Positions 56,336 through 59,125 of a stretch of 64,000 bases of DNA are shown here, piece by piece (within the stretch, counting starts at the first letter, position 1; the number at the start of each line of letters is the position of its first letter). Source of the stretch: Escherichia coli (GTDB taxonomy: Bacteria > Pseudomonadota > Gammaproteobacteria > Enterobacterales > Enterobacteriaceae); NCBI RefSeq assembly GCF_003334305.1, contig NZ_QOWS01000004.1; one strand, written 5' to 3'. The notes beneath the pieces are model-generated. The model did no database searches and was not told the DNA's origin. It saw nothing but the letters and a program-made list of their open reading frames with translations. Position numbers and translations under genes: made by a program.

Positions 56336-58582
56336 CTATAACCCTCCGCGAATCAGCCCGCCCATGCCGCGACGCTCCATAAAGGCTGCAACCTGATGGC
56401 GAACTTCGGTCGCCAGTTGCGCTTCCAGACTACGCTGCGCAAGATTTTCTGCTTCGGCATAATCAATGCGCCGCAGCAGGTATTTTACCCGCGCTACAGA
56501 ACGTCCGTTCATAGACAGATGGCGATACCCAAGCCCAATGAGGATTGCCACGCACATGGGATCGCCCGCCATTTCACCGCACAAACGGAGATCGATTCCA
56601 TGTATTTCCGCTTCCCGGGCGATCATCGCCAGAGCTCGTAACATTGCAGGATGAAGACTGTCATAAATGTTCGCCACCCGGGTATTGTTGCGATCAACGG
56701 CCAGAATGTATTGAGTCAGATCGTTGGTGCCAACAGAGATGAAATCGACCCGCTTTGCCAGATGCGGCAGCATAAATACCATTGACGGCACTTCCAGCAT
56801 GATGCCGATACGTGGTTTGGGAATTTCGTAACCGATCATCTCCTCGACTTCACGTCCGGCACGTTCAATCAGGCGGCGTGCTTCATCAACTTCATCGAGG
56901 CTTGTGACCATCGGCAACAGAATATTCAGGTTGCCCGTAGCGGCATTAGCACGCAGCATCGCCCGCACCTGGATCAAGAAGATCTCCGGCTGATCGAGCG
57001 TAATGCGAATCCCACGCCAACCCAGGCATGGATTCTCTTCGCTGATCGGCATGTAAGGCAGCTGCTTATCTGCTCCGACATCCAGCGTACGCAAGGTGAC
57101 GGGTTTATCATTGAACATTTGCAGCATCCCCTGATACTGCGCCACCTGTTCTTCTTCCGACGGGAAACCACTTTGCAGCATGAATGGGATTTCAGTGCGA
57201 TAAAGACCGATGCCATCAATACGGCTGCCCAGTTTTTCTTCATGTTCCGGGCTTAAACCAGCATTGAGCATGACTTTTATACGCTCACCGCTTTTTAACT
57301 GCGCGGGTAAATTGACGTCATCTTCCGCCAGACGGCTAAGCTCAATCTCTTCACTAATTAGCCGCTGATATTCTTGCAGCAGTACCGGCTCCGGATCGAC
57401 CAGCAATTCACCGCGATAGCCATCAACGATCAGCGTCCTACGATGCAGCACCGAAGGCTGAATATCCGCGCCCATCACGGTAGGGATCCCCAGCGCACGT
57501 ACCATGATTGCAGCATGGGAGTTGGCTGCGCCATCGCGCACGACAACACCCACTAAGCGATCCTGGGGCAGCTCAGCAAGAGTTGTCGCTGACAGTTCAT
57601 CTGCCACCAGAATGAAACGTTCCGGCCAGGCGTTCGGCCCTTGATTAGCGTCATCAAGATGAAACAGCAATCGCTGACCCAGCGCACGTAAATCGCCAGC
57701 CCGCTCTTTGAGATAGTTATCGCTTAGCGCGGCAAACTGTTCGGCAAATTTTTCAATGACCGTTTTTACCGCCCACTCTGCCACCGAGCCTTTATCAACC
57801 TCGGCAAACAATTCGCGACGCAGCCGGGTGTCCGAAAGCAGGTGCGAGTAAAGATCGAAAATAGCCGCCGTTTCTTTTTGTGCTCCGGCGGCAAAGCGTT
57901 TGCTGTAGCGGCGAAACTCGTTTGCCGCTTCTTCCAGCGCCCCGGTCAGTCGTTCGCGTTCCAGAGCCGGATCCAGCGTTGATGCCTGATACACCTGTTC
58001 CATTAAAGGTAACGTGGCATCCTGCCAGCCTTCGGCAATCGCCACACCAGGTGCTGCCGGTAATGCGCGGATTCGCGTCTGGCGATATTGCCCAAACAAG
58101 GCAGTCAACTGCGACTGAGAAAGAATAGCTGCCATCTGGGTGGCAAGCGTCACCAGGAAGGATTCTTCACTTTCGTCATACTGGCGCAACTCTCGTTGCT
58201 GTACCACCAGTACACCAAGCAACTGGCGACGTTGAATAATTGGTACGCCTAAAAACGCGCGGAAACGTTCTTCTTTTACGGAGGGGATGTATTTGAAGCT
58301 GGGGTGCTTTTGCGCATCTGCAAGGTTTATCGGTTCCGCCAGCCTGCCAACCAGGCCGACGATCCCTTCATCAAACGCGAGCGTTACAGTGCGACCGCGT
58401 GGTTTTTTCAGCCCCCGGGTCGCCATCAGGTAGTAACAACGTCGATCATGATCGGCAAGGTAGACCGAACAGACCTCGGTATCCATCGCAAGACAGATGT
58501 CGGTAACCAGAATATTTAACGCCTCATTCAGGCGTGGTGCGCTGGCTACCTTTTCGACTATTTCGCGCAGGCGAGTGAGCAT
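56336..58582 (-). CDS. ptsP: Phosphoenolpyruvate-protein phosphotransferase PtsP (Enzyme I-Ntr, GAF-EI fusion)
   Basis: 748-aa ORF MLTRLREIVEKVASAPRLNEALNILVTDICLAMDTEVCSVYLAD... with an N-terminal GAF domain followed by PEP-utilising Enzyme I domains. Confidence 0.95.
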   Translation of the reverse strand: MLTRLREIVEKVASAPRLNEALNILVTDICLAMDTEVCSVYLADHDRRCYYLMATRGLKKPRGRTVTLAFDEGIVGLVGRLAEPINLADAQKHPSFKYIPSVKEERFRAFLGVPIIQRRQLLGVLVVQQRELRQYDESEESFLVTLATQMAAILSQSQLTALFGQYRQTRIRALPAAPGVAIAEGWQDATLPLMEQVYQASTLDPALERERLTGALEEAANEFRRYSKRFAAGAQKETAAIFDLYSHLLSDTRLRRELFAEVDKGSVAEWAVKTVIEKFAEQFAALSDNYLKERAGDLRALGQRLLFHLDDANQGPNAWPERFILVADELSATTLAELPQDRLVGVVVRDGAANSHAAIMVRALGIPTVMGADIQPSVLHRRTLIVDGYRGELLVDPEPVLLQEYQRLISEEIELSRLAEDDVNLPAQLKSGERIKVMLNAGLSPEHEEKLGSRIDGIGLYRTEIPFMLQSGFPSEEEQVAQYQGMLQMFNDKPVTLRTLDVGADKQLPYMPISEENPCLGWRGIRITLDQPEIFLIQVRAMLRANAATGNLNILLPMVTSLDEVDEARRLIERAGREVEEMIGYEIPKPRIGIMLEVPSMVFMLPHLAKRVDFISVGTNDLTQYILAVDRNNTRVANIYDSLHPAMLRALAMIAREAEIHGIDLRLCGEMAGDPMCVAILIGLGYRHLSMNGRSVARVKYLLRRIDYAEAENLAQRSLEAQLATEVRHQVAAFMERRGMGGLIRGGL

Positions 58583-58594
58583 AATTGGCGTGAC

Positions 58595-59125
58595 TTAACC
58601 TCTTTTACGTCGATAAGCAGATGCGTTTTGTGGTTTTGGCGTATTTTCCTGCAGTGACATCACCACGCTCGCGAACTCTTTCATTACCCTACGGTAGACA
58701 TCACGTTTAAATGACACCACCTGTCTGACCGGATACCAGTAACTTACCCATCGCCAGCCGTCAAACTCTGGTGTACTGCTGGTTTGCATATTGATTTCTG
58801 CATCGCCGCTCACCAGCTGCAAGAGAAACCATTTTTGTTTTTGGCCGATACAAACCGGCTTCGTGTCCCAACGCACCAAACGTTTCGGTAATTTGTAGCG
58901 CAACCAGTTACGCGTTGAAGCAAGGATTCGAACGTCTTTGCGGCTTAATCCTACTTCTTCAAACAATTCACGGTACATCGCCTGCTCTGCGGATTCTCCG
59001 GGGTTGATTCCGCCTTGCGGAAATTGCCAGGAGTGCTGACCAAATCGCCGGGCCCACATTACCTGCCCCTGGCGATTACAAATCACGATACCTACGTTTG
59101 GGCGGTAGCCATCGTCATCAATCAC
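58595..59125 (-). CDS. rppH: RNA pyrophosphohydrolase RppH (NudH, Nudix)
   Basis: 176-aa [31 protein letters not shown]... with the Nudix box [23 protein letters not shown]; lies 12 nt upstream of ptsP on the same strand. Confidence 0.95.

Follow-up and report, generated by a model that had tools for sequence, protein, structure and literature searches.

What does it mean that an operon for RNA decay and phosphotransfer signalling stands directly beside a site that recycles the replication initiator? In Escherichia coli, the start of the rppH–ptsP operon shares an intergenic spacer with DARS2, a cluster of DnaA boxes at which DnaA is reactivated. This question was addressed in a 64,000-nucleotide stretch of a non-K-12 E. 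coli genome (contig NZ_QOWS01000004.1), called the window throughout, whose coordinates equal those of MG1655 (NC_000913.3) minus 2,909,852. The reading reached here, with a probability of about 0.85, is that a self-contained promoter drives rppH–ptsP and that DARS2 is a separate cis element alongside it. The coding sequences of rppH (nudH/ygdP; 58595–59125, 176 amino acids, GTG start; open reading frame (ORF) listing and RefSeq annotation) and ptsP (56336–58582, 748 amino acids; ORF listing) lie on the minus strand, and mutH (59810–60499, plus strand) diverges from rppH. The 684-bp spacer between rppH and mutH (59126–59809) contains the promoter, the 5′ untranslated region (5′ UTR) and DARS2. 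A preliminary description of this DNA spanned 56336–59125, which covers the two coding sequences only.

The rppH–ptsP promoter (59153–59189, minus strand) was located through a relaxed sigma-70 scan, a published transcription start site (TSS) and conservation across species. It consists of a −35 element TTTACC (59189–59184), a 17-nt spacer, an extended −10 TG (59169–59168) and a −10 hexamer AACAAT (59166–59161). A stringent sigma-70 scan, which needs at least 9 of 12 hexamer matches, returned no promoter upstream of rppH; the relaxed scan, which permits an extended −10, found TTTACC-17-TGaAACAAT. The measured TSS at 2,969,005 corresponds to window position 59153, an A located 8 nt 3′ of AACAAT, and leaves rppH with a 5′ UTR of 28 nt and a Shine-Dalgarno sequence GAGG at 59136–59133. 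Within the window, the TTTACC-17-TGAAACAAT string occurs only once. Across species, it was followed in loci collected by a DNA-pattern scan for the DARS2 core over a species-representative genome collection, which gave at least 120 loci on which tblastn was then run; the cross-species counts given here hold among the matches listed in these searches. The exact string is present in 38 of the 39 Enterobacterales species with a complete rppH start. Prediction, experimental TSS and phylogenetic footprint therefore carry the promoter jointly, and it is a weak, constitutive-type sigma-70 extended −10 element at 59189–59161.

The position of this promoter relative to the DnaA boxes bears directly on the opening question. 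Its −35 element lies 94 bp downstream of box I of the DARS2 core, and the box scan found no DnaA box with one mismatch or fewer overlapping the −35, the −10 or the +1. The preliminary description had suggested mapping the promoter against the boxes and had named a promoter outside the cluster and unaffected by DnaA levels as what would speak against its view; on the first half of that pair, the promoter is found outside the DARS2 core. A variable stretch at about 59200–59215 separates the −35 from the nearest conserved block, CTGTGAGTTATTCAATTGTTATTAG. Transcription starts at 59153 and proceeds through the 28-nt leader, rppH, the 12-nt spacer and ptsP.

Other sigma factors were considered for the same conserved blocks, GGTTTACCG…TGAAACAAT. 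A sigma-54 reading was discarded by eye, the −12 element missing its GC dinucleotide, and neither a sigma-E nor a sigma-32 reading showed a consensus match by eye; the consensus sequences are GGAACTT/TCAAA and CTTGAAA/CCCCAT. A SELEX peak of the RpoH holoenzyme, which also speaks for a promoter here, falls between rppH and ygdT, presumably near window position 59182 after v2-to-v3 coordinate conversion. Given this nearby peak, the rppH promoter may see some use by sigma-32. The ROSE supplement holds no rppH entry.

The neighbouring cluster was delimited with a scan for TTWTNCACA, allowing at most one mismatch, over the whole 64-kb window. This yielded 96 DnaA boxes, or 0.75 per 500 bp, 10 of which are concentrated in 59251–59750; the next-best 500-bp stretch holds 4, and the Poisson probability of the 10-box cluster is ~8e-9 per stretch. 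Four boxes of the cluster are perfect, two of them being canonical TTATCCACA (59494–59502 and 59613–59621). The core (59283–59317) is composed of box I (TTATTCACC, 59283–59291, plus strand), box II (CTATCCACA, 59297–59305, minus strand) and box III (TTCTTCACA, 59309–59317, minus strand). Boxes I and II are arranged head-to-head across a 5-bp gap, and boxes II and III share one orientation and are 3 bp apart. This geometry is that of the published DARS core (PMC6868365, PMC4245941) and is invariant across the Enterobacterales loci aligned. The IHF sites IBS1-2 (59376–59388 and 59392–59404) are 13-mers, each one mismatch from the IHF consensus, and are separated by 3 bp, the IBS1-2 separation given for DARS2 by Kasho et al. 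(PMC4245941). The literature also places DARS2 in the rppH (ygpD)–mutH spacer (PMC4585315, PMC8682772, PMC4245941). Judged by its sequence, the DnaA-box cluster is DARS2, because the core geometry, the IBS1-2 spacing and the location all match what has been published. The DARS2-type cluster that the preliminary description had recognised directly upstream of the gene pair is thereby confirmed by its 10 boxes in 500 bp, its core geometry and IBS1-2.

Farther from rppH, the perfect box TTATCCACA at 59494–59502 (plus strand), near a GATC at 59476–59479, is conserved in 12 of 12 aligned species. It is probably box V of DARS2 within the Fis-site cluster FBS2-5, a label inferred from the text of PMC8682772. 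Together with the GATC it forms a conserved block (59470–59505) where the Fis cluster, with the FBS2-3 sites essential for DARS2 activation, is expected. Two distal boxes, TTTTTCACA (59589–59597, plus strand) and TTATCCACA (59613–59621, minus strand), stand beside a second GATC (59632–59635), and the block AAACAGGATCTTACACCATGTTATCCACAGAAA of this region is largely conserved across genera. On the rppH side, two accessory invariant blocks, CTGTTTATAAC and CTGTGAGTTAT (59229–59262), lie between the core and the rppH promoter. The first holds a 1-mismatch DnaA box, TTATAAACA, and the second a 2-mismatch box, TAACTCACA, both on the plus strand. Counted upstream from the rppH −35, DARS2 thus extends from about 40 bp for the accessory blocks (40–70 bp) and from about 94 bp for the core. 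The DARS2 deletion primers MutH-9 and MutH-10 (PMC4585315) match sequence flanking the core by eye; the Lambda-Red primers as printed are both on one strand and were not used for deletion end points.

The activity of DARS2, namely release of ADP from DnaA, was published for the MG1655 sequence. The rppH–mutH spacer of the window differs from that of MG1655 by seven single-nucleotide polymorphisms and no indels; the core boxes, box V, the consensus positions of the IHF sites and the promoter of rppH are all unchanged. The window thus departs from MG1655 at seven non-critical positions, and its DARS2 would have the same activity. It would be a non-coding assembly point for ADP-DnaA, IHF and Fis, at which ATP-DnaA is regenerated.

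Natural rearrangements show that the parts of this arrangement can exist apart. About 50 Enterobacterales loci carry mutH and/or rppH next to the core (tblastn), and most have the order mutH, core, rppH–ptsP(–lgt). In Xenorhabdus, mutH and DARS2 are intact through CTGTGAATTAT, after which unrelated sequence and leuB follow; both rppH and TTTACC…TGAAACAAT are absent from that locus. Xenorhabdus anantnagensis (scan locus L076, 1290–2200) illustrates this state, with mutH and a recognisable DARS2 kept and rppH and its promoter missing. Arsenophonus (scan locus L105) likewise keeps mutH and DARS2 with no rppH there, and a transposase gene comes after DARS2. Synteny breaks just past CTGTGAATTAT, at the junction of the DARS2 blocks with the promoter, so that DARS2 has a natural boundary there. 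The accessory blocks CTGTTTATAAC and CTGTGAGTTAT go with DARS2 and mutH rather than with rppH, being kept in Xenorhabdus where rppH and its promoter are not. Leminorella grimontii (scan locus L090, ~10045–11042) is rearranged on the other side: rppH stands directly before lgt with no ptsP between them, and a GC-rich insertion of ~270 bp with internal inverted repeats parts the rppH −35 block from the −10 block. In Pseudomonas, DARS-core-like triplets, described below, do not adjoin rppH, which again separates the parts. The rppH–ptsP pair of Pseudomonas aeruginosa is presumably PA0336–PA0337. According to a recent review, ptsP typically follows rppH across the gamma- and delta-proteobacteria (PMC13104625); DARS2 beside rppH, by contrast, was met in Enterobacterales loci alone among the matches listed.

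The two genes themselves form a transcription unit. The rppH (nudH)–ptsP pair has been described as an operon (PMC4227774, PMC4635465, PMC13104625), and SMRT-Cappable-seq recorded full-length primary transcripts b2830|b2829 from the TSS at 2,969,005 on the reverse strand (PMC6131387 supplement). In an RNA-seq compendium, rppH–ptsP has a co-transcription score of 0.72; ygdT–rppH scores 0.25 and is classed as not co-transcribed. The spacer GTCACGCCAATT (58583–58594, minus strand) measures exactly 12 nt from the rppH stop codon to the ptsP ATG, carries no terminator-like site in a terminator scan, and has the same length in all 30 Enterobacterales loci, among the matches listed, with both gene ends found. 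The claim of two same-strand genes 12 nt apart therefore holds on the ORF listing and the sequence, and their co-transcription is borne out by SMRT-Cappable-seq, the compendium and the literature. The gap lacks a good Shine-Dalgarno sequence at the canonical distance; a GAGG lies 16 nt 5′ of the ptsP ATG, within rppH. Translation of ptsP therefore probably depends on ribosomes ending rppH, and these, terminating 12 nt upstream, would supply ptsP translation.

Where this unit ends is less sharply defined. Downstream of ptsP on the minus strand lie lgt (55310–56185) and thyA (54509–55303), completing a run of genes established from the ORF listing and the sequence. A functional unit of four genes, rppH–ptsP–lgt–thyA, in which the rppH promoter also feeds the essential lgt, and thyA, is held here as a tentative alternative, less likely than not. 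The RNA-seq compendium assembles such a unit (2964361–2968977; thyA, lgt, ptsP, rppH), with a ptsP–lgt score of 0.58. SMRT-Cappable-seq detected a longer variant, b2830|b2829|b2828, from the same rppH TSS at 2,969,005 (PMC6131387 supplement). After ptsP, only a weak terminator-like hairpin can be discerned by eye, and the terminator scan lists none. Termination after ptsP is leaky, and therefore some rppH transcripts run on into lgt. The ptsP–lgt spacer (56186–56335, minus strand), placed on sequence and a published TSS, however contains an internal lgt–thyA promoter. This promoter has an extended −10, TGcTATTAT, with its hexamer at 56277–56272, and belongs to the same class as the rppH promoter; its b2828|b2827 transcripts start at 2,966,116, or window position 56264 (PMC6131387 supplement). 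RegulonDB-type annotation keeps the two units separate, the length of the ptsP–lgt spacer differs among species (114–262 bp), and rppH adjoins lgt in Leminorella even though ptsP is lacking. Read-through past ptsP thus reaches lgt and possibly thyA, and lgt–thyA are also driven by a promoter of their own. Within ptsP, a peak of the FliA (sigma-28) holoenzyme presumably falls near window position 57192, an approximate value after coordinate conversion. This SELEX peak was reported at v2 position 2,965,066 (PMC5493296).

A regulatory coupling between DARS2 and the operon was considered in two forms. In one, DNA bending, looping or local supercoiling caused by DnaA, IHF and Fis bound together at DARS2 alters the activity of the rppH–ptsP promoter; in the other, divergent transcription of rppH and mutH supplies the negative supercoiling that DARS2 needs. 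Either form would tie the levels of RppH and EI-Ntr to the replication cycle or growth phase, and the two taken together are judged improbable. The short distances speak for coupling, as do the conserved lengths set out below: only 94 bp separate the core from the −35, upstream of which the accessory blocks already appear at 40–70 bp. The occupancy of DARS2 by IHF and Fis also oscillates with the cell cycle (PMC4245941, PMC8682772). On the other side of the balance, no DnaA box with one mismatch or fewer sits on the core promoter, and DARS2 persists without rppH in Xenorhabdus and Arsenophonus, the break falling exactly between the DARS2 blocks and the promoter. The rppH–ptsP linkage extends through the gamma- and delta-proteobacteria (PMC13104625), against a DARS2–rppH pairing confined to Enterobacterales among the matches listed. 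A literature search found no report of DnaA control of rppH beyond the DARS2 relocation paper, discussed below.

The relation favoured as most likely is a passive one, in which the rppH and mutH promoters would fire away from DARS2 and so keep it untranscribed; direct control of rppH–ptsP by DnaA is less likely. DARS2 loses its activity when strong transcription is forced through it, and it is natively transcribed at a very low level (Frimodt-Møller et al., PMC5010248). DARS2 and the operon would then be adjacent but separable modules.

Several observations weigh against this account of independent neighbours. The same authors (Frimodt-Møller et al.) found that DARS2, once relocated to rppH or to the gap before ptsP, is fully functional and complements a DARS2 deletion. 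DARS2 can thus work where transcription is weak, and the argument that it must be kept free of transcription loses force; the same shift of ~650 bp, after which DARS2 still fully works, also counts against coupling. A second point concerns length. Among the matches listed, all but one of 35 species, ranging from Escherichia to Pantoea and Rosenbergiella, have a mutH–rppH spacer of 673–684 bp; the exception is Leminorella with 962 bp. In 38 of the 39 loci with a complete rppH start, rppH begins 185–189 bp from the core, although much of the sequence in between varies. Roughly half of the columns of the mutH–rppH spacer vary despite its fixed length, and the control spacers of the same loci vary two- to three-fold (ptsP–lgt, 114–262 bp; mutH–ygdQ, 53–192 bp). 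The sample was conditioned on an exact core match and may be enriched in conservative lineages. Invariant islands in the otherwise variable spacer are, in the alignments, the promoter, the DARS2 core, CTGTTTATAAC and CTGTGAGTTAT, the probable box V region and the distal box region. The length lock and the fixed core-to-rppH distance are a hint of constrained spacing, in which the rppH promoter may have a part. The known spacing needs of DARS2 (core–IBS–FBS, PMC4245941) explain the mutH-proximal part but not obviously the distance from the core to the rppH promoter. That these fixed distances of 185–189 bp and 673–684 bp make the promoter and DARS2 one architecturally constrained unit is nevertheless considered unlikely. 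Behind such a unit would stand either gating of rppH–ptsP transcription by DnaA, IHF and Fis bound at DARS2, dependent on the cell cycle or growth phase, or supercoiling set for DARS2 by the outward-firing rppH and mutH promoters; in both cases, replication-initiator recycling would be physically linked to RNA-decay capacity and to nitrogen/potassium signalling.

A third point against independent neighbours is a published promoter assignment: in an RpoD SELEX-chip survey, Shimada et al. list TTGACG-18-TTTAGT for rppH–ptsP (PMC3946193), which corresponds to 59561–59532 within DARS2, and its TTGACG −35 lies within an invariant block. That this is the main operon promoter, with a leader of ~400 nt running through ygdT and the DARS2 core, is very improbable and was rejected, since its −10 TTTAGT is not conserved outside Escherichia and the TSS of the SMRT-Cappable-seq operon table is 59153 rather than ~59525; in addition, ygdT–rppH is scored as not co-transcribed in the compendium, transcription of DARS2 is reportedly very low and harmful when forced (PMC5010248), and the resolution of SELEX-chip is coarse, the hexamers being picked computationally within a peak.

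A short annotated gene, ygdT (59478–59624, minus strand, 48 amino acids; RefSeq annotation), lies wholly inside DARS2, and its start codon overlaps the perfect DnaA box at 59613–59621. It has no NCBIfam match. Its ATG is missing from Kosakonia cowanii, Pantoea, [Erwinia] mediterraneensis and Rosenbergiella, and a 1-nt deletion shifts its frame in C. amalonaticus. A real ygdT gene whose transcription crosses DARS2 is disfavoured by this lack of conservation of start and frame, by the absent family match and by the missing co-transcription with rppH. ygdT is probably not a conserved protein-coding gene, its apparent conservation being that of the DARS2 DNA elements. Elsewhere inside DARS2, a nearly invariant block CTACTGTTTCCATTTACAGCCTTGAC is found at ~59556–59580 (minus strand), with its ATTTACAGCCTTGAC part identical in 12 of 12 aligned species. 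This block holds TTGACG with no conserved −10 after it, and could be a Fis site or another protein-binding site. At the mutH end of the spacer, window position 59795 carries a G in place of the A of MG1655 (minus strand), which turns the mutH −10 listed by Shimada et al. from TTTAAT into TTTAAC (plus strand).

Both proteins were identified from their sequences. Over residues 1–175, RppH matches the NCBIfam equivalog NF001934 at 352 bits, above the cut-off of 241, and its Nudix box, defined as GX5EX7REUXEEXGU (PMC4227774), occupies residues 38–60. It is near-identical to the E. coli structures solved as PDB 6d13, 2kdv and 4s2w ('RNA pyrophosphohydrolase'), with E-values down to 8e-122. According to papers citing Deana et al. 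2008, that study showed that the E. coli protein, which is identical, removes pyrophosphate from 5′-triphosphorylated RNA. By this identity, the 176-residue protein is RppH, a Nudix-family RNA 5′ pyrophosphohydrolase. PtsP reaches 1487 bits with NCBIfam NF008283 (cut-off 583); on the PtsI model of the sugar phosphotransferase system, NF008382, it reaches 370 bits, under the cut-off of 824. Its Pfam domains are GAF (18–153), PEP-utilisers_N (PF05524, 174–294), PEP-utilizers (PF00391, 320–391) and PEP-utilizers_C (PF02896, 420–707). The active-site His356 motif GAANSHAAIM lies inside the PF00391 match, the mobile His domain, and PDB entries 5t1o and 5t12 are fragments of PtsP. On these matches, the 748-residue protein is EI-Ntr (PtsP), a GAF sensor domain fused to an Enzyme I core. 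The naming of an RppH-like Nudix enzyme and a GAF-domain PtsP in the preliminary description agrees with the equivalogs, the Pfam domains, the motifs and the RefSeq annotation.

The locus as a whole is unexceptional for the species. Positions 56100–59900 are matched in all 5426 complete E. coli genomes by megablast, several of them at 100% identity, including strain R1, and the RefSeq tables of strain R1 and MG1655 have an identical layout with the genes lgt, ptsP, rppH, ygdT and mutH. The locus is the standard E. coli chromosomal rppH–ptsP transcription unit. An Rfam scan of the whole window found no RNA family within 56000–60000. Elsewhere in the window, matches above the gathering threshold are the small RNAs CsrB (14684–15043, minus strand, 380 bits) and GcvB (33225–33430, plus strand, 199 bits), and one tRNA (37754–37827, plus strand).

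The search for the core pattern also led beyond the Enterobacterales. Among the matches listed, about 33 Pseudomonas/Stutzerimonas species carry TGTTCACA-AGG-TTATCCACA-GCTTN-GGTGGATAA, an element of three DnaA boxes spaced and oriented exactly as in the DARS core (III, 3 bp, II, 5 bp, inverted I) that is not beside rppH. In Pseudomonas seleniipraecipitans (scan locus L013, 6518–6544), it is flanked by two ORFs identified by eye, one resembling an FKBP-type isomerase and the other small and starting with MKAPWNF…; further Pseudomonas/Stutzerimonas instances are scan loci L011, L015, L018–L022, L024, L027, L036, L039, L040, L042, L050, L052, L053, L057, L058, L060, L068, L074, L078, L082, L088, L094, L098, L099, L103, L104, L107, L111, L119 and L120. 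A literature search found no description of a DARS in Pseudomonas. The triplet could be an unrecognised DnaA-reactivating site and may interest those who work on replication control. More DARS-core-like triplets, of the form TTCACA-N4-TATCCACA-N5-GGTGGATAA, occur outside the rppH–mutH context in Vibrio (L005, L028), Providencia (L054, L114), Pectobacterium (L071) and at L016, L062, L096 and L118. These may be DARS1-type sites.

For E. coli, this operon and its transcription start, what the two proteins do, and DARS2 with its position are already established and published. The additions made here are a position for the promoter with respect to the DARS2 boxes, the finding that this promoter is conserved across Enterobacterales, and the natural rearrangements that reveal the modularity of the locus. 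The promoter is self-contained and outside the core, and the parts exist apart; therefore their proximity is no evidence of a functional link. The connection between mRNA decay, nitrogen-PTS signalling and DnaA recycling implied by the preliminary description is accordingly not supported. The useful outcome is a negative one, in that closeness on the chromosome is not to be read as linking mRNA decay and PTS-Ntr signalling with the control of replication. The fixed length of the spacer is a minor side observation.

Several known systems place this arrangement in context. The rppH–ptsP operon of E. coli K-12 (nudH/ygdP–ptsP; b2830–b2829) shares the genes, their order and strand, the 12-nt gap and the TSS context. 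PtsP of the window is 99.9% identical to that of MG1655 (tblastn), and the sole scored difference between the two RppH proteins is a Met put in for the GTG start codon; there is no functional difference between the K-12 operon and that of the window, whose strain is not K-12. The DARS2 of E. coli (Fujimitsu 2009; Kasho 2014; Miyoshi 2021) has the core boxes, IBS1-2, the perfect box in what is probably the Fis cluster and the location in common with the cluster described here. In the published studies, DARS2 figures as a cis element that acts autonomously, and the promoter of rppH is not discussed; here that promoter is placed 94 bp from box I, and the spacer is seen to keep a fixed length across Enterobacterales genera. 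DARS1, in the bioD–uvrB spacer, and datA are also clusters of DnaA boxes in non-coding spacers that modulate the nucleotide state of DnaA, and both are likewise inactivated by transcription through them (PMC5010248). They occupy other loci, outside the window; DARS1 is without the IHF/Fis regulatory arm, and its E. coli core does not match the exact DARS2-core search pattern. For the operon, genes of the PTS-Ntr are usually co-transcribed with unrelated functions, and in the case of rppH this has yielded no mechanistic link (PMC4635465). At another locus and with other genes, and as a precedent only, the rpoN operon (rpoN–hpf–ptsN–rapZ–ptsO) likewise unites PTS-Ntr genes and functionally unrelated regulators in one unit (PMC13104625).

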